Of a DNA stretch of 56,720 nt, positions 487 through 27,501 are shown in pieces. The translations under genes and the position numbers were made by a program. Position 1 is the first letter of the stretch, and each line of letters starts with the position of its first letter. This DNA comes from Acidobacteriota bacterium. GTDB lineage: Bacteria; Acidobacteriota; Polarisedimenticolia; Gp22-AA2; AA152. The notes beneath the pieces are model-generated. The model was not told the origin of the DNA and did no database searches. It saw only the letters and a list, made by a program, of their open reading frames with translations. The stretch covers positions 1 to 56,720 of the forward strand of contig JAKEFJ010000175.1 in NCBI GenBank assembly GCA_022616665.1, read 5' to 3'.

Positions 487-2646
487 TCAAATGGGCTCAA
501 GCTGGGAGTACCTGGGTAGAAACTTCTTGGAGCCATAGACCGAGAAGGAGACGGTCAGCTTCAGGGATTCACCGGCGCCCTCCACTCCGATGATGGTGCC
601 GATTCCATACTCCGGGTGGTGCACCCGTTTCCCCAGCTTGTAGGGGCCCGCACCTTCCCGCTCCCGAAATTCTCCAGCTTCCGGATCGAGTACATAGCTG
701 CGCGAAGACTCCGCCACCCGTGGGCGGGGAAGCGCCACGGCCCGCCGCGTGAGATCCCGCAGCAGGTGCGGGGGAATCTCCTCGAGGAATCGGGACGGCT
801 CGTTGAACTGGCTGCGGCCGAAGAGCCGGCGGGAGACGGCTCGGGTCAGGAGTAGTCGCTCCTTCGCCCGGGTCATCCCCACGTAGCAGAGGCGACGCTC
901 CTCCTCAACGTCATCGAGCTCCTCCCGGCTGTGGGCGTGCGGGAACAGGTTTTCCTCCATGCCCACCAGGAAGACCACGGGAAACTCCAGCCCCTTGGCA
1001 CAGTGCAGCGTCATGAGTGAAACCCCGCCTGCCCCCCGGGTATTCTCCACCTCTGATAGCAGGGCGGTGCGCTCCAGGAATTGCTGGATGCCCTCGACTC
1101 CCCCGGCGTATTCGCCGACGGCAGCCACCAGCTCGTCCACGTTTTCCAGTCGGGACTCCGCATCCTGCGGATTGTCGCGCTCCAGGAATTCCCGATAGCC
1201 AATCCGCTGGATGAGGTCGGAGAGAAAGTCTCCCGGCTCCTTCTCCGCCATTTCCAGTCGAAGGTCCTCCAGGAGATCGAGAAAGCCCCGGATCGCCCGT
1301 TCGCCCCGGGGGGTCAGCAGCGAGCGCTCCAGGACGATCCGGGCAGCCACGGCGGGAGGGAGGCCCTCGGTTCCTGCCAACTCCTCCACCAGGGCTGCCG
1401 TGCCTTTGCCGATCTCCCTGGGCGGGACATTGACCACTCTTTTCCAGGAGACTTCATCGGCCGGATTCACCAGCAGCCGCAGATAGGCGATGAGATCCTT
1501 GACCTCCTTGCGCTCGTAGAACCGAACGCCACCGATAATCAGATATGGCATGCCGCGCCGCACCAGGGCTTCCTCGAAAAGTCGAGACTGGGCGTTGGTG
1601 CGATAGAGGACGGCGAAATCCTCGGGAGGCCGATCCATCCGGGCCATGCTTTCCGCCGCGAAGTGGGCCTCTTCCAGATCGTCCCCCGCGCAGAACAGGT
1701 CCAAAGGCTCCCCCGCGTCGTTTTCCGTCCACAAGGTCTTGCCGATTCGGCTTGTGTTGTGGGACACCATCGCGGAGGCTGCTTCCAGAATCACCTTGGA
1801 GGAGCGGTAGTTCTGCTCCAGCTTGATGATGCGGGTTCCCGGGAAATCCCGCTCGAAGGTGAGGATGTTCTGGATGTCGGCTCCGCGAAAGCGATAGATG
1901 GACTGGTCTTCGTCTCCCACGCAACAGACGTTCCCGTGGGCTCGGGCCAGCGCCCGGATGAGGCGGTACTGCGAGTGATTGGTGTCCTGGTACTCGTCCA
2001 CCAGCAGGTACCGGCACCGCTCGCTCCAGCGGCGCGAGGCCTCCTCGTCCGTCTCCAGAAGCCTCAGGGGCAGGACGATGAGGTCGTCGAAATCCATGGC
2101 ATTGGCAGCGCGTAGACGACGGGCGTAGCGTTCGTAGAGTCGGGCGATGGTGCGGCTGCCCGAGGAGATGCCCGAAGCCTGAAATTCCTCCGGGGTCACC
2201 ATCTGGTTCTTGGCGTGGCTGATCGAGGAGAGCACGCGCCGAGGTGGGAATGCTTTGTCGTCCACCCCTTCCTCGCGCAGCAGGTCCTTCACGAGGGCCA
2301 TCTGGTCGTCGTCATCGTAAATGACGAAGCTTCGGGCATAACCCAGCCGCTCTGCCTCCACCCTCAGGATTCGCAGGCCCAGGGAATGAAACGTGGAGAT
2401 CCACGCTCCTACGGGAACGTTTCCCAGGAGATCCGCCACGCGGGTTTTCATTTCGCCGGCGGCTTTGTTAGTGAAGGTGACGGCCAAAATCTCCTCGGGA
2501 CGCGCCTTGCCGGAATGAAGCAGGTGGGCAACGCGGTAGACGATGACCCGGGTCTTGCCGGAGCCGGCTCCCGCCAGGATCAGGAGAGGGCCTTCGGTTG
2601 CCAGGACCGCCTCTCGCTGCTTGTCGTTCAGGGTGTCCAGGAGCAT
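487..2646 (-). CDS. pcrA: ATP-dependent DNA helicase, UvrD/PcrA family (SF1)
   Basis: LNDKQREAV, Walker A AGAGSGKTRV, LLVDEYQDTN, VGDEDQSIYRFRGA and TLHCAKGLEFPVVF motifs, plus a C-terminal Tudor-like HPEYGIGTI tail. Start taken at Met33 of the ORF (MLLDTLN); the upstream 32 codons look non-coding. Confidence 0.9.
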   Translation of the reverse strand: MLLDTLNDKQREAVLATEGPLLILAGAGSGKTRVIVYRVAHLLHSGKARPEEILAVTFTNKAAGEMKTRVADLLGNVPVGAWISTFHSLGLRILRVEAERLGYARSFVIYDDDDQMALVKDLLREEGVDDKAFPPRRVLSSISHAKNQMVTPEEFQASGISSGSRTIARLYERYARRLRAANAMDFDDLIVLPLRLLETDEEASRRWSERCRYLLVDEYQDTNHSQYRLIRALARAHGNVCCVGDEDQSIYRFRGADIQNILTFERDFPGTRIIKLEQNYRSSKVILEAASAMVSHNTSRIGKTLWTENDAGEPLDLFCAGDDLEEAHFAAESMARMDRPPEDFAVLYRTNAQSRLFEEALVRRGMPYLIIGGVRFYERKEVKDLIAYLRLLVNPADEVSWKRVVNVPPREIGKGTAALVEELAGTEGLPPAVAARIVLERSLLTPRGERAIRGFLDLLEDLRLEMAEKEPGDFLSDLIQRIGYREFLERDNPQDAESRLENVDELVAAVGEYAGGVEGIQQFLERTALLSEVENTRGAGGVSLMTLHCAKGLEFPVVFLVGMEENLFPHAHSREELDDVEEERRLCYVGMTRAKERLLLTRAVSRRLFGRSQFNEPSRFLEEIPPHLLRDLTRRAVALPRPRVAESSRSYVLDPEAGEFREREGAGPYKLGKRVHHPEYGIGTIIGVEGAGESLKLTVSFSVYGSKKFLPRYSQLEPI

Positions 2647-2793
2647 CGGCGCCTTTCGGGAAGACCTCGCGTCTGCAGCACGGATGTGGCGAAGAATAGC
2701 ACAGCCTCGGGAAACCGCCGTGGCAGCGTGAAATTCCCTCAACTACCAAGCCTGGGGCCGGATTGCCAGCAGGCCGAGCAGGAAAGCGGCGGT

Positions 2794-4626
2794 CTATTCG
2801 ACGGTGACGCTCTTGGCGAGGTTTCTGGGTTGGTCCACGTCGCAGCCCCGACGCAAGGCAATGTGGTAGGCGAGGAGCTGGAGCGGAATCACCGCCAGGA
2901 TGGGGGTGAGCAGGTCGGCGGTTTTTGGAATGGCGATAACGTGGCTTGCGATCTTGCTCAGATCGCCGTTCCCCTCCTGGGTAATGGCGATGATGCGTCC
3001 TTCACGGGCCTTCACCTCTTCGATGTTCCCCATCATCTTTTCATAGACCTTGTCGCCGAAAGTCAGGGCGACTACGGGAAGGTTCTTATCGATGAGGGCG
3101 ATGGGGCCGTGCTTCATCTCGCCGGCCGGATAGCCCTCGGCGTGGATGTAGGAAATCTCCTTCAACTTCAGCGCCCCCTCCAGCGCGATGGGGTAATTCA
3201 CGCCTCTCCCGAGAAAGAGGAAATCCGAAGCCCGGTAGTATTCCTTGGCCACTTCCTCGATGGCGGGATCCGTCTGAAGGATTTTCTCCACCAGCGCCGG
3301 CAGATGCAGCAGCTGTGCAATGTGGCTCTTGGCCGCATCCAGTTCCAGCGTGCCGCGAACCTCGGCAAGGTGCAGCGCCAGCAGCTGCAGGGCTATCAGC
3401 TGGCAGGTGAATGCCTTGGTGGATGCCACCCCGATTTCCGGACCGGCGTGGGTGTAAATGACGCCGTTTGCCTCGCGGGTGATCATGCTTCCTACCACGT
3501 TGCAGATCGCCACGGTCTTGACCTTCTTGGCCCTGGCCTCCCGCTGGGCGGCCAAGGTGTCCGCGGTCTCTCCCGACTGGCTGATCACGACTACCAGGTC
3601 CTCGGGGGCGAGAATCGGATCGCGATAGCGGAATTCGGAGCCGATGTCCACATCCACGGGCACCCTCACGAGCCGCTCGAGAAGGAACTTCCCCACCAGC
3701 GCCGCGTGCCATGAGGTGCCGCAGGCCACCAGGGAAATGCGCCGGACTCTGCGGAAATCTTCCGGGGAGATGTCCATCTCCTCCAGAAAGATCTTGCCAG
3801 TTTCCGCCGAAACGCGGCCCAACAGGGTGTCTCGAATGGCTCGGGGCTGCTCGTAGATTTCCTTCAACATGAAATGCTTGAAGCCGCTCTTCTCGGCCAT
3901 GATCGGATCCCAGGTGATTCGCTGGGCCTTCCGGGTCACGGGGCGTCCCTCCAGATCCCGGACTTGGACCCCCGCCTCGGTCACCACCGCCAGCTCGCGA
4001 TCGTCCAGGAAGAAGATATCCCGAGTATGGTGGAGGATTGCCGGGACGTCGGAGGCGACGAAGTACTCGTCCTTGCCGAGTCCGATCACCAGGGGCGGTC
4101 CATTCCTGGCCGCCACGATTTTCTTGGGGTGATTCGCGGCGATCACCGCGATGGCATAGACGCCCTTCAGGCGCGGCAGGCAGAGGCGAATCGCCTCTTC
4201 CAGGGAGTGCTCCTTCAGCTTCTCCTCGAAGAGGTGCGCCATCACCTCGGTATCGGTCTCGGTCTTGAAAGAGTGCCCACGCTGCTGAAGCTCCCGCTTC
4301 AGCTCTATGTAATTCTCGATGATGCCATTGTGCACCACCACAAGGTTTCCGGTGCAGTCGCGGTGTGGATGGGCATTCTCTTCGGTGGGTCGCCCGTGGG
4401 TCGCCCAGCGCGTGTGCCCCACTCCATAAGAGCCGTCTAAGGGCTTCAGACGAAGCGCTTCTTCCAAGTCCCGAAGCTTCCCGGCGCAGCGCGTCACCTC
4501 CAGACCCTTCTCGTTGACCACCGCGAGTCCTGCCGAGTCGTACCCCCGGTACTCCAGGCGGCGCAGCCCGTCCATGAGAACACTGGTGAGGCGTTTGTTC
4601 CCGATGTACCCGACGATTCCGCACAT
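2794..4626 (-). CDS. glmS: Glutamine--fructose-6-phosphate aminotransferase (isomerizing)
   Basis: Starts MCGIVGY (catalytic Cys2) at Met15 of the ORF. Two SIS domains. Ends with the canonical NLAKSVTVE. Confidence 0.95.
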
Positions 4627-4703
4627 GATGAGACCGAATATAGGGGGTTTCGATGCATCCTGCAACAAAGCGGAGCGCGAAGCGGAGCGAAGATCGCAGA
4701 TTT

Positions 4704-6143
4704 CTAGTGCTGCTTCCTTTTGTGTTTCTTGGCCCAGCCCTTCACCACCACCTGGCGACCCCGGGCGATGGCGAGGCTGTAAGGGGGCACTTCCTTCGTG
4801 ATGGTGGATCCGGCTCCCACGTAGGCTCCTTTGCGCACCCTGACCGGCGCGATCAACTGGCTGTCGCTGCCGACAAAAACGCCGTCCTCCACCACTGTCT
4901 TGTGTTTTTTCTCCCCGTCATAATTGCAGGTGATGGTTCCCGCTCCGATGTTGACGCCCTCGCCAATTTCCGAATCGCCGAGGTAGGTGAGATGGTTTGC
5001 CTTGCTTCCGCGGCCGATGGCGGTCTTTTTGGTCTCCACGAAATTTCCGATGCGCACCCCCTCGGCCAGCTCCGTGTCGGGACGCAGATGCGCGAAAGGG
5101 CCCACCTTGACGCCCCGTCCCAGGCGCGCCTGGGTGATGACGCAATGATCCAGGATTTCGGTTCCCTCCCCGACTACCGAGTTCGAGATCCGCGTCCCCG
5201 GCCCGATCCAGCAGCTCTCCCCAACAACGGTGTCTCCCACGAGAAAGGTCATGGGGCAGAGGACCGTGTCGCGGCCCACGCGAACGTTGGCTTCCACGTA
5301 GGTACATTCGGGATCCAGGAACGTCACGCCGGCGTCCATGAGCTCCTGAGCTTTTCGCAGGTAGAGCCTTTTCCCCGCCCGGGCCAGCTCGCGTCGGTTG
5401 TTGACGCCCATGACCTCTTCGCTGTCCGGGTGGCGATAGGCCGCCACTTTCTGGTGGTTCCGCTTGAGAATCTCCACCAGATCGGTGAGATAGATCTCCC
5501 CCTGGGCATTGTTGGCACCCGCCTGGAGGAGATTCTTGAAAAGGTGCTTCATCTCCACGCAATAGATGCCCGCGTTGATCTCCTGGATTTGCTTCTCCTC
5601 CGGGGTCGCGTCGGAAGCTTCCACGATCCGGGCCACATCGGAGTTGTAGTTGCGGACGATCCGCCCGTAAGCCGCGGGATCCTCGAGCACCGCTGTGAGC
5701 AGCGTCAGCGGAACGGCGTGCTGTCGGTGAAATTCCAGAAGACTGCGAAGCGTCTCGACGCGCAGGGAAGGAAGGTCACCGTTGAGAATCAGGAGCGTGT
5801 CTTCCGCCCCCTTCAAGACCTTCTCCGCGGAGAGGACTGCATGTCCGGTCCCCAGGGGCTGCTCCTGGATGCAGAAGCTCACCCTCGGGTCTTTCGTCCC
5901 GACTGCCTGGCGAACGTCCTCCGACTGGCTTCCCACCACCATCAGGACGCGCTGGGCCCCCAGGGCCAGCGCCGCATCCACCACGTATCGAACCATGGGT
6001 TTGCCAGCCAGGTTGTGCGCCAGCTTGGAAGCTCGGGAATGCATACGCTTCCCCACGCCGGCCGCCAGGACGAGGACGGTGATTCCGGGAGGCTTCGGCT
6101 CCGGGAATGGGGAGGGCTTGATGGAGGTCTTGCGGGTGGCCAT
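4704..6143 (-). CDS. glmU: Bifunctional UDP-GlcNAc pyrophosphorylase / GlcN-1-P N-acetyltransferase
   Basis: LAAGVGKRM nucleotidyltransferase signature followed by C-terminal left-handed beta-helix hexapeptide repeats. Sits directly upstream of glmS. Confidence 0.92.
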
Positions 6144-21545: not shown

Positions 21546-22403
21546 GTGGGAATCCAGGTCGTGGGAGTGGTGGGGGGCGGCACGATGGGCAACGGAATCG
21601 CCCAGATGGCCGCCGCTGCGGGGCATCCCGTAATTCTGGTGGATCGCTCCGCAGAATTCCTCCAGCGGGCGCTGGACACCATCGACAAAAACCTCCAACG
21701 AGCGGTCGATAAAGGAACCCTCACGAGGGCCGACAAGGCAGCACTCCTGGGCCGAATCACCACGGACGAGACGCTGGAGAAACAGGCGGCCGCGGATTTC
21801 GTCATCGAGGCGGTTAACGAAGATCTCGACCTGAAGCGCCAAATTTTCAAGGATCTGGATCGGATTTGCCGGCCGGGAGTCATCCTGGCAACGAACACAT
21901 CCTCCATCTCCATCACCAAGATCGCCGCCGTCACCAAGCGCCCGGAGCAGGTCATCGGGATGCACTTCATGAATCCGGTGCCGGTCATGAAACTGGTGGA
22001 GGTGATCCGCGGCCACGCCACTTCCGACGAGACCTGGCAGGCAACCCGGGAGCTGTCGGAGAAGTGGGGGAAGGTCCCGGTGGAAGTCCACGATTACCCG
22101 GGATTCGTCTCCAACCGGGTGCTCATGCCGATGATCAACGAGGCGATCTTTGCCCTGCACGAAGGGGTCGGCTCCCGGGAGGCCATCGATACGGTCATGA
22201 AGCTGGGAATGAACCATCCCATGGGTCCTCTGACTCTGGCGGATTTCATCGGGCTGGACACGTGCCTGGCCATCCTGCAGGTTCTCCATGAAGGATTCGG
22301 AGATCCCAAATACCGGCCGTGCCCCCTGCTCAGGAAAATGGTGGACGCGGGACATCTGGGGAGGAAGTCGGGGCGCGGGTTTTACGATTACGAACGCACC
22401 TGA
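21546..22403 (+). CDS. hbd: 3-hydroxybutyryl-CoA dehydrogenase
   Basis: [15 protein letters not shown] Rossmann motif and NTSSISIT; HFMNPVP. GTG 21546 has a GGAGG SD 6 nt upstream. The 438-aa ORF in the track is an overextension into the thiolase gene. Confidence 0.9.
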
Positions 22404-22408
22404 CCGCG

Positions 22409-25294
22409 ATGATCGACTTTGTCCGGGCGCTGTCCGCTTCCAGGGACTTCGGTCCCGACCTGGTCCAGGTGCGGTCCTTCCCCGCGGCGGCGGGAAAATA
22501 CGCGGATCTCGCCGAGGGTCTGTCCCCCGCCCTGTCCGAAGCGCTGCAGCGTCAAGGAATCAGCCGGCTCTACTCCCACCAGGCCGAAGCGATCGATCGG
22601 ATACGGCGCGACCAAAACGTCCTGGTGGTCACTCCCACGGCCTCCGGCAAGAGTCTCATCTATATCCTCCCCACTTTCGAGAGAGTGATCCGGGAGCCGG
22701 GAGCCCGGGCGCTGTACCTCTTTCCCTACAAAGCGCTGGAGCAGGATCAGCTCAAGGCGATTCTCTCCCTGGGGGGAGACCTGGGCGGCGGGAGGAGGAT
22801 CCGAGCCGAAATCTATGACGGTGATACTCCCGCATCGCGGCGCAAGGCGATCAAGGCCGACCCTCCCGACATCCTGATCACCAACCCGGACATGCTCCAC
22901 CTGGGCCTTTTGGCCTACCACGATGATTGGCGCGAGTTTTTCTCCCATCTCCGATTGGTGGTTTTGGACGAGCTGCACGTCTACAAGGGGATCTTCGGGT
23001 GCCACCTGCACCATATTCTGGTGCGATTGCGACGGGTGGCGGATCATCATGGGACCCGTCCGAGATTCGTGGCCTCCTCGGCCACGATTGCCAATCCCGA
23101 TGAGCTTGGCACCGCTCTGACCGGAGAGGATTTCGCGCTGGTGGACGACAACGGGGCGCCCCGGGCGGCCAAGCACATCGCCTTTCTCAATCCGGCGGTC
23201 AGCGCCTACACTTCGGCCACCAAGCTCATCGCGAAATCTCTCTCCTCGGGATACCGTACCATCGCTTTCACCAAGGCCCGAAAGATCACGGAGCTGATCC
23301 ACTCGTGGCTGGTCCAGCAGGATCCGAAGCTGCGGGAGCGCATCTCCTCCTACCGTGCCGGTTACCTGCCCGAGGAACGGCGGGAGATCGAGCGACGGTT
23401 GGTGCAGGGGGACCTCTGGGGAGTGATTTCCACCAGCGCGCTGGAGCTGGGAGTGGATATCGGCGGATTGGATGTTTGCGTGCTGGTGGGTTATCCCGGC
23501 TCCATCGTCTCCTCCTGGCAGAGGATCGGGCGGGTGGGGCGCGAGGACCGGGAGTCGCTGACCTGCCTCGTGGGGATGCCCGACGCTCTGGATCAATACT
23601 TCATGAGGGAGCCGGAGGAGTTTTTCCGCCGCGGCTTCGAGCGGGTGGTGTTCGACCCCGCCAACCGGGTGATCGCCGCGGACCATCTGGTGTGTGCCGG
23701 AGCAGAGATTCCCCTCACGCGACAGGAGGACGAGCCGCGCTATGCGGAGGGGACGTTCGACGTGGTGCAGGATCTCGAGCGCCAGGGGGGGCTGGTCCGG
23801 GACGCCGAAGTCGAGCGCTGGTATTCGTTCCGCCGCAATCCACAGCGCAGCGTGAATCTCAGGGGCATCGGCAACACCTACACCATCCTCCGGGGGGAGA
23901 ACGGCGATCCCTCGGGGCGGGTCATCGGAACCGTGGACGCCATCCGCGCCTTTCATGAGTGTCACGATGGAGCCATCTACCTCCACCTGGGACAGCAATT
24001 CCTGGTCCGCGCCATGGACGTGGAGAATCGCAAAGTGCGCGTGGCGGCGGTGGATACGGACTATTACACCGTGGTCAAGGCTGAAAAGCAGACCGAAATC
24101 CTTGCGACCCTCGCTTCCCGGGTGCTGGGGCCGGCCCGAATTCACTTGGGGAGGCTGAAGGTGACCGAAGAGATTCTCGGCTACGAGAAGCGGCGCCTGC
24201 ACGGCCGGGACCGGATCTCCTCCCACGATCTCGAGCTCCCTCCCATCGTGTTCGAGACCGTGGGTCTGTGGATCGAGCTGCCGGAGGATCTGCGCGGCAT
24301 GGTGGTGGCCCGGGAGGGGCACTTCATGGGAGGCATCCATGCGACGGAGCATGCCGCCATTTCCCTGTTTCCTCTCTTGGCCATTTGCGACCGCAATGAC
24401 ATCGGTGGCATCTCCTACCCTCTCCATCCGCAGCTGGGACGATCGGCCATCTTCATCTATGACGGATACCCGGGAGGCGTGGGCCTGGCGGCAAAGGGAT
24501 ATGACGGGCTCGAAGATCTGCTGGAGCGAACTCGCAAGCTCATCGAGGGATGCCCGTGTGAAAAGGGATGCCCTTCCTGTATCCATTCCCCCAAATGCGG
24601 AAACGGCAACCAGCCTCTCGACAAAAAAGCGGCTCTCTTGATTCTTCGAGTTCTGACTGGCGTGCTGCCGCTGGAAAGGTCGATGCAGGAATCGCCGGCA
24701 CCCGCGAGCGAGCTCCTGGCGACCGCGTCGGAGGCCCGGCGGGAGAAGACGACGCAGGATGGGAGAGTCCTTTATTTCGATCTGGAGACCCTGCGCAGCG
24801 CCGAGGAAGTCGGAGGGTGGGAGAACACGGCGAAGATGGGAATGTCGGTGGGGGTGGTGTTCGAAGAGGGGAAAGCGGAGTACCGGACCTACCGCGAAGC
24901 CGACGTGGAGCGCCTCCTGCTGGATCTGGTGACCGCGGATCGGGTCATCGGCTTCAACATCGACCGGTTCGACCTGGCGGTGCTCTCCGGCTACACCACC
25001 TGGGACCTGGGAAAAATCCGGACCTTCGACATGATGGGCTACATCTACTCGAAGCTGGGATTCCGGCTCAAGCTGGACTCCCTGGCCGAGACAACGCTGG
25101 GAGAGAGAAAATCCGCGGATGGGCTGCAGGCGCTGGCCTGGGTCAAGGAAGGCCGGTTCGACCTCATCGAGGAGTACTGCCGGAAAGATGTGGAAGTGAC
25201 CCGCAGCCTGCACCGGTTCGGAGTCACGAACCGATTCCTGCTCTATCACGATCGAGAGGGACGCAAGGTGCGGCTTCCGGTGGAGTGGACCTGA
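22409..25294 (+). CDS. DEAD/DEAH-box helicase with DUF1998/MZB domain (MrfA/YprA-like) fused to a C-terminal DEDD-type 3'-5' exonuclease domain (MrfB/YprB-like)
   Basis: VTPTASGKS, VLDELH and QRIGRVGRE motifs. Four-Cys cluster CPCEKGCPSCIHSPKCGNGN (nt ~24551-24600). From nt ~24764: YFDLET (ExoI), GFNIDRFD (ExoII), YCRKDV (ExoIII). Start at MIDFVRAL, 6 nt after the hbd stop. Confidence 0.85.
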   Translation: MIDFVRALSASRDFGPDLVQVRSFPAAAGKYADLAEGLSPALSEALQRQGISRLYSHQAEAIDRIRRDQNVLVVTPTASGKSLIYILPTFERVIREPGARALYLFPYKALEQDQLKAILSLGGDLGGGRRIRAEIYDGDTPASRRKAIKADPPDILITNPDMLHLGLLAYHDDWREFFSHLRLVVLDELHVYKGIFGCHLHHILVRLRRVADHHGTRPRFVASSATIANPDELGTALTGEDFALVDDNGAPRAAKHIAFLNPAVSAYTSATKLIAKSLSSGYRTIAFTKARKITELIHSWLVQQDPKLRERISSYRAGYLPEERREIERRLVQGDLWGVISTSALELGVDIGGLDVCVLVGYPGSIVSSWQRIGRVGREDRESLTCLVGMPDALDQYFMREPEEFFRRGFERVVFDPANRVIAADHLVCAGAEIPLTRQEDEPRYAEGTFDVVQDLERQGGLVRDAEVERWYSFRRNPQRSVNLRGIGNTYTILRGENGDPSGRVIGTVDAIRAFHECHDGAIYLHLGQQFLVRAMDVENRKVRVAAVDTDYYTVVKAEKQTEILATLASRVLGPARIHLGRLKVTEEILGYEKRRLHGRDRISSHDLELPPIVFETVGLWIELPEDLRGMVVAREGHFMGGIHATEHAAISLFPLLAICDRNDIGGISYPLHPQLGRSAIFIYDGYPGGVGLAAKGYDGLEDLLERTRKLIEGCPCEKGCPSCIHSPKCGNGNQPLDKKAALLILRVLTGVLPLERSMQESPAPASELLATASEARREKTTQDGRVLYFDLETLRSAEEVGGWENTAKMGMSVGVVFEEGKAEYRTYREADVERLLLDLVTADRVIGFNIDRFDLAVLSGYTTWDLGKIRTFDMMGYIYSKLGFRLKLDSLAETTLGERKSADGLQALAWVKEGRFDLIEEYCRKDVEVTRSLHRFGVTNRFLLYHDREGRKVRLPVEWT

Positions 25295-25313
25295 CACAGC
25301 GGGGAGGGAGGCG

Positions 25314-25991
25314 ATGGGACTAAAGTCTCTGGACGTGCTCCTCTCCCAGTACCGTGTCGAGGTGCTGGGCGAGAAATCCCGGGAAGCACAGGAGATGACT
25401 CGATTCACAGAATTCCTGTTGAGCCACGGGGGGCTCAAGAAGCTGGAGGTCCCGGGGAAGCCTGCCCTGCTCGTGGATCGGACGGAGAGGCTGCGGTGCT
25501 TTCACTTCTCCCAGTATCTGGACTGGTACCTGACGGAGAAGGTGGGAGCCGACCGGCGAGAAGTTGAAGAGGCACGCCTGGCCATGGTTCATTTCAATGA
25601 ATGGCTCCTGGAGCAGCAGGCCATCACGCAAGAAGCGTTCGAGGAGAATCGCGATTCGATCTTGAGCGGGGAGGGCGGTCCCGCCGTGTACGAGGACGTG
25701 TCCGGTCCTGGAGTGGATGACGACGAGACGGGCATCCCCGCCGTCCGGGAGGAGAAGGATTTCTACGTTCCTGGCGAGTACTCCGCCACCTTGAGCGGCG
25801 AGCTCATCCTCACCAAGGTCCAGGAAGGAATTCTCTACGGCACCTTCCCCGATGGTGGAAAAGAGATCGGTCCCATTCTGGTGGATCGGGCCGTCAGCAG
25901 CAGTCACAAGGTGGGCGATCGCGTTCACCTCTCCCTGGGCCGGGCCGGGGACCACTGGAATCTGCTGCACGAGGGTCAAAGACGGAGCTGA
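25314..25991 (+). CDS. Hypothetical protein (225 aa), likely co-transcribed with the helicase-exonuclease
   Basis: Starts 20 nt after the helicase stop. Helical N-terminal half, acidic linker (VDDDETGIPAVREEKD), small beta-rich C-terminal module. No family recognised. Confidence 0.55.
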   Translation: MGLKSLDVLLSQYRVEVLGEKSREAQEMTRFTEFLLSHGGLKKLEVPGKPALLVDRTERLRCFHFSQYLDWYLTEKVGADRREVEEARLAMVHFNEWLLEQQAITQEAFEENRDSILSGEGGPAVYEDVSGPGVDDDETGIPAVREEKDFYVPGEYSATLSGELILTKVQEGILYGTFPDGGKEIGPILVDRAVSSSHKVGDRVHLSLGRAGDHWNLLHEGQRRS

Positions 25992-26811: not shown

Positions 26812-27501
26812 TCAAGGCAATGGGTCAGAGAACTTTTCCAGTTTCTGCAGGCTGCTCTCGGCCTCTTTCACGTAGCCGTATTCCGGATGGCCCATCCGGA
26901 TCACCCGCTGGTAATAGTTCCGGGCGTGGGCCGTCAGACGGGCCTCGTCCAGGGTCAGCGCCAGTCCAAAAAGCGCCCCCTGGTGACCTTCGGAGCTATA
27001 GAACGGCTTCTTCGAATCGAACAAATCCACGGCACATAAATAATGGTAGATGGATTCGGGGTAGCGCTGGTAACGCTCCACCTCCAGTCGGCCCCGCTCC
27101 GCGAAGGCCGCGGCGCGCCCGTTCTGGTAAAAGTCCCGGTTCTCCAGGCAGCGGTCGAGCCAGCGCAGAGCTTCCTCGGCGCGGCGTTGGAAGCTATAGC
27201 AGTAGGCGATCTGCAAGGATGCCACTCCCTGCTCGGGAGGGTCGCCTCCCAGCTCGCTCAATCCCGCCAGGTAGTACTTCAGGGCCTCCTGGTACTTCTC
27301 CTGGTCATAGTGCCAGTCTCCCAGATCAAGAAGGAAATATCCCAGCAGCTCCGCAGCGCCGGATTGCCGAGCCAGCTGCCGGTATTCGGGCTCCATCCGG
27401 ATCGCCTCGGGGAGCTCGCCCGCCTCCAGGTGGGCCAACATGCGTTGATCCAAGCGCCGGCGTTCCAGCTCCACCTGACGACGGGTTGGGGTCTTGGCCA
27501 A
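26812..27501 (-). CDS. TPR repeat protein
   Basis: 229 aa with repeated TPR-like helix pairs (YQEALKYYLAGLSELGGDP, AEEALRWLDRCLENRDF, YYQRVIRMGHPEYGY). Confidence 0.68.
   Translation of the reverse strand: MAKTPTRRQVELERRRLDQRMLAHLEAGELPEAIRMEPEYRQLARQSGAAELLGYFLLDLGDWHYDQEKYQEALKYYLAGLSELGGDPPEQGVASLQIAYCYSFQRRAEEALRWLDRCLENRDFYQNGRAAAFAERGRLEVERYQRYPESIYHYLCAVDLFDSKKPFYSSEGHQGALFGLALTLDEARLTAHARNYYQRVIRMGHPEYGYVKEAESSLQKLEKFSDPLP

Follow-up and report, generated by a model that had tools for sequence, protein, structure and literature searches.

The stretch of DNA analysed here (called the window; 56,720 nucleotides of contig JAKEFJ010000175.1 from an Acidobacteriota bacterium) carries a gene in which a helicase, a linker and an exonuclease follow one another in a single reading frame (Table 1). 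Neighbouring genes in the window encode a thiolase, a 3-hydroxyacyl-CoA dehydrogenase (3HCDH), HU, a TPR protein, a MiaB-like protein, PurE and PurD. With the exception of the TPR protein, the order FolD-thiolase-3HCDH-fusion-HU-MiaB-like-PurE-PurD is kept in Acidobacteriota relatives, and the genomic context is a conserved housekeeping neighbourhood. A scan for promoters and terminators returned nothing above chance save a single site that resembles a promoter and lies upstream of thiolase.

The ATG at 22409 is located 5 nt past the TGA of the upstream 3HCDH gene. An alternative GTG start at 22319 in the ORF list would give a protein of 991 aa; tblastn alignments of relatives begin at query residues 1-4, and residues 1-10 of the fusion protein are predicted by AF2 with a pLDDT of 94. 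On the opposite strand, an ORF of 1016 aa (22388..25438) had no Pfam match and was taken as a GC-rich shadow frame.

Table 1. Features of the fusion gene in the window.
Feature	Residues	Position	Strand	Basis
Whole fusion gene, helicase-linker-exonuclease	961 aa	22409..25294 (stop codon included)	+	ORF list
MrfA/YprA-type SF2 helicase (RecA1/RecA2, winged helix, OB/connector, MZB)	~19-751	22463..24661	+	TIGR03817, Pfam, 6ZNP
MZB (MrfA Zn-binding, DUF1998) domain	647-725	24347..24583	+	PF09369, E 3e-23
Disordered, poorly conserved linker	~759-783	24683..24757	+	AF2 pLDDT <50
DEDDy 3'-5' exonuclease	~786-961	24764..25291	+	AF2, Foldseek, PF13482 in relatives, invariant catalytic residues

Junction integrity and spread of the fusion

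A reading made from the sequence alone (called the sequence-only reading) had described the gene product as an MrfA-type DUF1998/MZB helicase fused to a complete DEDD exonuclease. Profile searches, AF2, Foldseek and the alignment of relatives bear out this single polypeptide with a disordered linker between its two parts, and all motifs named in that reading were found at the positions given there. The region between the two parts is variable: residues 751-780 showed the lowest conservation in the alignment of 76 full-length relatives (42% gaps), and the distance from the last Cys of the helicase to D791 ranges from 54 to 116 aa among relatives.

We considered the explanation that the fusion is an artefact of assembly or annotation, in which two neighbouring genes had been joined through a sequencing error or through chimeric assembly of the contig. 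Some relatives do show helicase pieces next to a separate exonuclease gene of 169-221 aa. These split cases are long-read, low-coverage assemblies (one contig is named '3.42x') in which the helicase itself lies in several pieces, and the fragmentation together with the low coverage therefore indicates frameshift errors; the apparent split relatives P0067 and P0077 were dismissed on this ground. Within the window, the junction is spanned by independent contigs from two sequencing runs. The contig from run X1 measures 1501 bp (23406-24906) and has 0 differences from the window, that from run X2 measures 408 bp (24499-24906), and for neither was an indel or a joint reported. Together, contigs from the two runs cover the entire gene free of indels. 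A mis-join is thereby excluded. Likewise, no frameshift or stop was found between the MZB and exonuclease parts in these contigs or in the relatives, since an uninterrupted single frame is present in 80/80 of the best species-level genome matches (of at least 588), closed chromosomes included and across many phyla, and the 76 full-length ORFs can be aligned over their entire length. We regard the probability of an artefact as negligible.

The wide distribution also limits the novelty of the fusion. An organism with fused MrfA and MrfB is mentioned in the footnote of Fig. 6 in a study of the B. subtilis proteins (Burby & Simmons, bioRxiv 10.1101/426304), and a 2025 survey of the YprA family lists helicases "fused to MrfB/YprB homologs", while the terms YprB and MrfB were absent from the supplements of this survey. 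Presumably the gene of the window belongs to this previously noted clade of MrfA-MrfB fusions with the same architecture. The sequence-only reading had put the fusion forward as new Rosetta-stone evidence for a partnership of the two proteins. The fusion itself is real and in one frame, but it adds little in this respect because the partnership is experimentally established by epistasis and two-hybrid interaction (Burby & Simmons, bioRxiv 10.1101/426304) and the fusion had already been noted in print. The gene is thus a solid annotation of an already known type and not a discovery. Details of the fused nuclease (DEDDy signature, loss of the TPR and N-terminal regions, linker, phyletic spread) were not found in Burby & Simmons or in the 2025 survey. 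Proteins of this kind (~960 aa) carry no label in public records beyond 'DEAD/DEAH box helicase', and C-terminal fragments appear as 'ribonuclease H-like domain-containing protein'.

Helicase module and exonuclease domain

Pfam searches with the whole protein returned DEAD (E 3e-30), Helicase_C (E 2e-13) and WHD_HRQ1 (E 6e-9, residues 416-487) besides the MZB match of Table 1. The SF2 motifs PTASGKS, DELH and QRIGRVGR are located at residues 76, 187 and 371, respectively, and their motif residues are invariant in an alignment of 28 relatives. A cluster of cysteines (C715, C717, C721, C724 and C730) lies at and just past the C-terminal end of the MZB domain, and the first four of them are invariant among the aligned relatives (alignment A3). 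The structure of B. subtilis MrfA/YprA (PDB 6ZNP) was matched with an E-value of 1e-151 and 35% identity over query residues 29-727, collinear with 6ZNP residues 32-732, and Foldseek aligned the AF2 model to the same structure with an E-value of 2e-74 and TMt values of 0.77-0.81. The match runs end to end and includes the winged helix, the OB/connector and the 4-Cys MZB domain, and the first ~750 residues qualify as an MrfA/YprA helicase of orthologue grade. The NCBIfam model TIGR03817 (DECH_helic, helicase/secretion-neighbourhood helicase) scored 718.2 bits over residues 19-751, which is below its curated cut-off of 874.1 bits; judged by this profile score, the helicase represents a subfamily related to TIGR03817 and not a member by the NCBI threshold. 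3'-5' DNA helicase activity is predicted from the 35% identity to the characterised MrfA.

The C-terminal part contains the exonuclease motifs YFDLET at residue 789 (D791/E793), GFNIDRFD at 848 (N850/D855) and YCRKD at 923 (Y923/D927), and 34 residues follow between D927 and the end of the protein. Without exception, the full-length relatives (76/76) share D791, E793, N850, D855, Y923 and D927, in agreement with the DEDDy-like third motif (Y-x3-D) that the sequence-only reading had pointed out; Y-x3-D was also found in 149 of the 150 cluster representatives. Searches of Pfam, NCBIfam and the PDB sequences with the C-terminal 214 aa alone yielded either sub-threshold DEDD matches, such as DNA_pol_A_exo1 (E 0.013) and DNA_pol_B_exo2 (E 0.022), or none. 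The domain of the window was not matched by PF13482 (RNase_H_2) even at E<=10, and no Pfam TPR domain was found in the fusion protein or in its C-terminal 214 aa. Since direct sequence searches were sub-threshold or empty, the assignment required a family alignment, AF2 and Foldseek.

PF13482 was matched by 45 of the 49 aligned family members at E<=0.01 (best 2e-11), several of them above the gathering threshold of 22 bits; scores of 24-36 bits were obtained for family members, and the score of B. subtilis MrfB is 136.6 bits. When the family profile was compared with PDB sequences, weak matches were obtained to the Pol I exonuclease (8JRB, E 0.018), T7 polymerase and NrnC (9QTH, E 0.28), and the MrfB structure 8UN9 was not retrieved. 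AF2 predicted the exonuclease construct with a pLDDT of ~98 over residues 40-214 of 214. With this model, Foldseek returned a probability of 1.00 to the exonuclease domains of PolB, Pol epsilon and T7 polymerase (E 2e-6 to 1e-5); among the best 50 of 159 significant matches, which are filled by polymerase entries, the nearest folds were 1TGO (E 2e-6, TMq 0.57), 6S1C (Pol epsilon) and 1SKR (T7). Foldseek also paired the domain with phage proteins named 'YprB ribonuclease H-like'. The DEDD/RNase-H fold claimed for the last 200 aa is therefore present by Foldseek, with the window's own domain staying under the Pfam thresholds. DEDDy chemistry is common to the fused nuclease, NrnC and the proofreading domains of family-A and family-B polymerases, but the fusion protein has no polymerase domain and sequence identities are 13-20%. 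The nuclease is of a PolB-proofreading-like structural class and, judged by its relatives, probably falls into PF13482, the Pfam family which also holds MrfB. Based on the predicted fold and the conserved residues, it is predicted to be a DEDDy 3'-5' exonuclease of the two-metal type with its catalytic residues intact.

Relation to MrfB and origin of the nuclease

For comparison, the authentic MrfB sequence was traced from 6ZNP, through its alignment and a search for homologues, to the locus in B. subtilis. BLASTP between MrfB and the fused nuclease was not significant (best E 0.85). The same was true for hhalign of the profile against the MrfB sequence (probability 1.4%) and against the MrfB family profile (probability 0.75%, E 0.075, with the Exo II region alone aligned), and hmmsearch between the fused nuclease and the MrfB family scored <8 bits in both directions. 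As all of these searches were non-significant, the domain is not filed as MrfB proper, and functional equivalence to MrfB would be an analogy drawn from position and family rather than orthology.

In both systems the nuclease is coded directly 3' of the helicase: B. subtilis mrfB begins 16 nt after mrfA as a second gene, whereas the form in the window is one polypeptide. The literature gives 3'-5' polarity for both members of this mitomycin-C repair pair of B. subtilis, the helicase MrfA (YprA) and the exonuclease MrfB (YprB). Both nucleases are of the 3'-5' DEDD type, with PF13482 matched by MrfB and by relatives of the fused domain, and have in common a long alpha-C helix, an x3 spacing before the last Asp and a nearly identical Exo I-Exo II distance (65 residues in MrfB, 64 in the fusion). 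They differ in the fifth catalytic residue, which is Y923 in the fusion (Y923-x3-D927, DEDDy) and H258 in MrfB (H258-x3-D262, DEDDh, invariant within the MrfB family). Absent from the fusion are the ~100-residue N-terminal region that precedes D107 of MrfB and its C-terminal TPR (matches at 291-359). According to a published AF-Multimer prediction, the N-terminal region of MrfB wraps the winged helix of MrfA, and the DNA 3' end is placed near the MrfB active site. The designation 'MrfB-like' in the sequence-only reading consequently holds at the level of Pfam family and fold, but extends neither to direct similarity nor to the DEDDh signature and the TPR and N-terminal regions.

These differences raise the question of whether a PolB-exonuclease-like DEDDy nuclease was acquired independently by convergent recruitment and not from an adjacent mrfB, in analogy to MrfAB, WRN and exonuclease-DinG. 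In line with such an origin are the non-significant similarity to MrfB and to the profile of its family, the low PF13482 scores of the family relative to MrfB, the Tyr in place of the His and the missing TPR and N-terminal extension. Stand-alone genes that are ~50% identical to the fused nuclease point the same way; they adjoin PBP1A/TPR/Tricorn genes, with no helicase nearby. Phage-type exonuclease+Gp157 fusions also exist among the relatives of the nuclease. However, the best Pfam match of the family is MrfB's own PF13482, the motif spacing and the long alpha-C helix are shared, the nearest structural neighbours of MrfB were published as the same PolB/Pol epsilon/NrnC DEDDy domains, and the fused partners are treated as MrfB/YprB homologues in the 2025 survey. 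On balance we consider independent recruitment rather doubtful, and it is only tentatively that we propose the nuclease to be either a distinct DEDDy branch recruited apart from the Bacillus-type MrfB or an ancestral Tyr form of the DEDDh enzyme. One syntenic relative appears to retain the nuclease alone, which together with the stand-alone copies argues that the nuclease does not strictly need the helicase. If it were indeed a distinct branch, the fusion clade would represent a repair enzyme in its own right, built as a single chain and common among uncultured anaerobes (Acidobacteriota, Desulfobacterota, Methylomirabilota and anammox Planctomycetota), whose nuclease, as suggested by the stand-alone and helicase-deleted copies, would also be able to act alone.

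A putative single-chain helicase-nuclease

We propose that the gene encodes a single-chain helicase-nuclease which combines 3'-5' unwinding with resection of 3' ends in DNA excision repair, a reading to which we assign a probability of roughly 0.7. It builds on the domain identities, the intact catalytic residues, the single frame, the wide conservation and the housekeeping context observed here. The helicase part, with its winged-helix, OB and zinc-binding MZB domains, would use ATP to translocate along DNA in the 3'-5' direction, and the DEDDy exonuclease would be tethered to it by a flexible linker of ~25-40 residues. The helicase would load where a nick or gap close to a lesion provides single-stranded DNA and unwind in the 3'-5' direction, after which the tethered exonuclease would digest the freed 3'-ended, damage-bearing strand. 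B. subtilis divides this job between MrfA and MrfB, and the covalent link may stand in for the non-covalent tether provided by the N-terminal region of MrfB. Three points of this proposal are inferred: coupled action of helicase and nuclease, the substrate on which they act, and any link to mitomycin-type adducts. Against the proposal, distant MrfAB homologues from P. aeruginosa fail to complement B. subtilis, and other uses of MrfAB in distant bacteria have been suggested (Burby & Simmons, bioRxiv 10.1101/426304).

YprA-family helicases with C-terminal nucleases also occur as anti-phage effectors directed at invading DNA, as in Druantia, ARMADA and TALON, and C-terminal nucleases are typical of the defence-branch helicases in the literature. 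The PADLOC models BrxHI, SngC, DruE and DpdF did match the helicase core in part, but these matches are limited to the generic SF2 core (162 bits for BrxHI versus 510 bits for MrfA). The nucleases described for the defence branch are PLD, Vsr/PD-(D/E)xK or inactivated RNase H domains, none of them an active DEDD exonuclease. Moreover, the neighbours belong to core metabolism and include no methyltransferase, BrxHII-like helicase, PLD/Vsr nuclease, DrmB or other defence partner as known from the YprA-family systems DISARM, Dpd, Druantia and ARMADA. In the 2025 survey, the forms associated with MrfB or fused to it are assigned to the repair branch. A role in defence is therefore very improbable for the gene of the window.

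Covalent joining of an SF2 helicase to a 3'-5' DEDD exonuclease is found in other systems. Human WRN unites a DEDDy exonuclease and a RecQ helicase in a single chain. Staphylococcus aureus DinG carries an N-terminal 3'-5' exonuclease and a helicase (PMC12345164). In both, unlike in the fusion of the window, the nuclease lies at the N-terminus, ahead of a helicase from another family (RecQ and XPD/DinG-like, respectively) without MZB/DUF1998; these arrangements arose independently of the fusion.

Recognition of an intact DEDDy nuclease in the proposed helicase-nuclease allows a more accurate functional label in hundreds of genomes. The mode of the MrfA-MrfB interaction is not yet settled in the B. 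subtilis literature, and a natural single chain without the TPR and N-terminal tether could simplify structural work on the coupling of unwinding to 3' resection. The full-length AF2 model reached a pTM of 0.86 despite the disordered linker, a value which fits a docked nuclease without proving the docking.

Reading frame and helicase module

The sequence-only reading had placed an MrfA-type helicase and a DEDD exonuclease on one polypeptide, and the fusion was borne out by the 961-aa ORF and by a survey in which one genome per GTDB species was scanned. Among the best 80 of at least 588 relatives found, all matched query residues ~1-960 and all (80/80 loci, among them closed chromosomes such as CP070843, CP070704, CP070673 and OY762721) encode both modules in one frame without a stop. 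The whole gene is tiled by Logan contigs from two sediment-metagenome runs, in which no indels or joints were reported, and the junction is crossed by a 1501-bp contig (23406-24906, 0 differences) and by a 408-bp contig (24499-24906). A mis-join is excluded by these junction-spanning contigs of two runs together with the single frame in the best 80 loci. Two close syntenic relatives from long-read assemblies (L081 and L089; one contig is labelled 3.42x) show the helicase split over several gene calls and give the exonuclease a gene of its own (169-221 aa). They were rejected as true split genes, since a broken helicase in long-read assemblies almost certainly reflects frameshift errors; entries of this type make "stand-alone" exonucleases look more frequent in protein databases than they are.

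An in-frame GTG at 22319 is an alternative start that would add 30 residues. The ATG at 22409 was kept because it lies 5 nt beyond the TGA (22401-22403) of the upstream 3-hydroxyacyl-CoA dehydrogenase gene, because the relatives' alignments in the species-level scan begin at query residues 1-4 and because residues 1-10 form a confident helix in the AF2 model. A long antisense ORF over the same region was rejected as a gene, as it has no family match and corresponds to the usual GC-rich shadow frame.

Coordinates of the fusion gene, neighbouring ORFs and related loci (L-numbers: positions within the respective locus)
Feature	Coordinates	Strand	Remarks
Fusion gene	22409..25294	+	single ORF, 961 aa
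Antisense ORF	22388..25438	-	1016 aa; no Pfam match
ORF between fusion gene and HU	25314..25991	+	225 aa; starts 20 nt past fusion stop
TPR protein	26812..27501	-	229 aa; TPR_12 E 2e-7; between HU and MiaB-like gene
L081, fragmented relative	3441..5666		
L089, fragmented relative	1603..4510		
L082/L083, stand-alone exonuclease	5001..5612		
L086, stand-alone exonuclease	4001..4576		
L087, stand-alone exonuclease	4001..4618		
L092, gene in fusion slot	4501..5229		242 aa; intact DEDDy exonuclease, 62% identity to window residues 779-960

In the helicase module, the Pfam search returned DEAD, Helicase_C, WHD_HRQ1 and MZB (PF09369) in MrfA order, and the motifs PTASGKS (76), DELH (187) and QRIGRVGR (371) as well as the Cys cluster (residues 715-730) were confirmed. 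NCBIfam TIGR03817 aligned over residues 19-751 with 718 bits, under its 874-bit cut-off, and the B. subtilis MrfA/YprA structure 6ZNP is collinear (residues 29-727 versus 32-732, E 1e-151). In Foldseek, 6ZNP also ranked first (E 2e-74, TMt 0.77-0.81, 35% identity) for the full-length AF2 model (pLDDT 88, pTM 0.86); the defence-system models BrxHI, DruE, DpdF and DrmA matched the generic SF2 core only, with much lower scores. The linker read from the sequence between the modules is seen as pLDDT <50 at residues 759-783 of this model and as variable length in the relatives: D791 lies 61 residues beyond the last Cys in the window protein and 54 to 116 beyond it among the relatives, and block 751-780 has the lowest conservation and most gaps in the alignment of full-length relatives.

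The exonuclease domain and its relation to MrfB

The isolated 214-aa tail reached Pfam only below threshold (DNA_pol_A_exo1 E 0.013, DNA_pol_B_exo2 E 0.022), with no NCBIfam match and nothing meaningful among PDB sequences. A homologue search yielded 849 relatives, and an exhaustive profile search 4076 clusters (50% identity) at E<=1e-3, 599 of them at E<=1e-30. In a 49-sequence alignment of the family, the invariant or near-invariant columns coincide exactly with the DEDD motifs; PF13482 (RNase_H_2) was matched by 45/49 members at E<=0.01 (best 2e-11), the two polymerase-exonuclease families by fewer. AF2 on this alignment gave pLDDT ~98 at residues 40-214 of the tail and ~51-67 over the first 39. 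In the PDB, Foldseek matched the model to proofreading domains of archaeal family-B polymerases (1TGO E 2e-6, TMq 0.57-0.60) and further to those of Pol epsilon, herpesvirus polymerase and T7 polymerase. Matches in BFVD were small phage exonucleases, some named "YprB ribonuclease H-like domain-containing protein"; the 214-aa viral protein H9C0I0 has TM 0.68 to the model. Phage-borne versions are also indicated by two proteins of 356 and 464 aa (P0192, P0200), since they combine the same exonuclease family with a C-terminal Siphovirus Gp157 domain.

The motifs YFDLET (789), GFNIDRFD (848) and YCRKD (923) were confirmed. D791, E793, N850, D855, D874, Y923, C924 and D927 are invariant in 76 full-length relatives, in line with the full DEDD set claimed from the sequence, and the DEDDy-like third motif (Y-x3-D) is kept in 149/150 of the best cluster representatives. 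This conservation argues for a catalytically intact domain with predicted DEDDy 3'-5' exonuclease activity.

Authentic B. subtilis MrfB was reached from the 6ZNP alignment via an MrfA search to locus L085, where a 413-aa PF13482 gene (136.6 bits; TPR matches at 291-359) begins 16 nt after mrfA. In common with MrfB, the fused nuclease has the Pfam family (as judged from its relatives), a place directly 3' of the helicase, the Exo I-Exo II spacing (64 versus 65 residues), a fifth residue x3 from the last Asp on the long alpha-C helix and, according to the MrfB paper, the nearest structural neighbours (archaeal PolB, Pol epsilon, NrnC). It differs in having Tyr in place of His258 and in lacking both the TPR domain and the ~100-residue N-terminal region, which is wrapped around the winged helix of MrfA in a published AF-Multimer model. 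BLASTP of MrfB against the domain gave no significant match, hhalign of the 49-sequence alignment gave probabilities of 1.4% against MrfB and 0.75% (E 0.075, only the Exo II region aligned) against 31 MrfB sequences, and hmmsearch between the families stayed <8 bits both ways. "MrfB-like" applies to Pfam family and fold and fails for direct similarity, His258, TPR and N-terminal region; given these shared features, differences and non-significant comparisons, the domain is an MrfB-class (PF13482) DEDDy exonuclease in MrfB's place, a possible rather than an established MrfB orthologue.

Proposed action and prior reports

[quoted passage not shown] By analogy, the fusion most likely represents a single-chain helicase-nuclease machine, in which the helicase module would translocate 3'-5' from a nick or gap and the tethered nuclease would trim the freed 3' end, so that the damaged stretch is removed. 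With a pTM of 0.86, the full-length model would allow for a docked nuclease. The substrates may be mitomycin-type adducts or others; in B. subtilis, no complementation was obtained with distant homologues (Burby & Simmons, bioRxiv 10.1101/426304).

The suggested Rosetta-stone evidence for the MrfA-MrfB partnership is not new: epistasis and two-hybrid data had already established the partnership, an organism with fused MrfA and MrfB was marked in a figure legend (Burby & Simmons, bioRxiv 10.1101/426304), and a 2025 YprA-family survey lists helicases fused to MrfB/YprB homologues. The window gene is a known, common fusion type; it holds no surprise and adds no new evidence for the partnership. 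In these reports of the fusion (the preprint and the survey) we did not find it stated that the fused form is DEDDy, that it has lost the TPR and N-terminal parts or that it is distant from Bacillus MrfB. What is gained is a clean annotation and possibly a good object for structural studies of how helicase and nuclease are coupled.

Genomic neighbourhood and stand-alone nucleases

The nearest loci (58-64% identity) come from MAGs of Acidobacteriota, several of them bearing the label of the class Candidatus Polarisedimenticolia in that phylum, and share with the window the order FolD-thiolase-3HCDH-[fusion]-HU-MiaB-like-PurE-PurD, a vertically inherited housekeeping neighbourhood and no defence island. 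Tight spacing and one promoter-like site preceding the thiolase gene weakly suggest co-transcription with the upstream genes. The fusion also occurs in genomes labelled Thermodesulfobacteriota/Deltaproteobacteria, Methylomirabilota, Nitrospinota, Scalinduaceae, Kuenenia, Glassbacteria, Aerophobetes, Desantisbacteria and CSSED10-310. Full-length fusions on contigs from Promethearchaeota, Bacteroidales and Woesearchaeota bins (L078, L079, P0515; the first two with very low coverage in the contig names, cov 0.42 and 1.41) may be binning errors rather than a real archaeal presence.

Stand-alone exonuclease relatives (190-205 aa, ~50% identity) had no helicase nearby in the three loci examined. The gene order in L086 and L087 runs PBP1A, a 166-aa TPR protein (with stop/start overlap in L086), exonuclease and Tricorn-like protease, recalling the exonuclease+TPR architecture of MrfB; in L082/L083 the Tricorn-like gene is the only recurring neighbour. 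An acidobacterial MAG (L092; GCA_030157165.1, JASDBC010001845.1) retains the synteny of the window, and in the fusion slot its nuclease follows a helicase remnant of only 17 residues (498-514). This points to loss of the helicase with the nuclease kept, or else to a MAG misassembly; the "MGRGEESEP...PRRRGS" leader of the protein is also present in several other samples (P0010, P0014, P0066).

Two ORFs set the window apart from related loci. The 225-aa ORF, without a Pfam match or a counterpart in those loci, where HU directly follows the fusion, is either a lineage-specific insertion or a non-gene. The 229-aa TPR protein, for which no counterpart was found there, is unlikely to stand in for the TPR of MrfB; that it lies near an MrfB-class nuclease without TPR is noteworthy.
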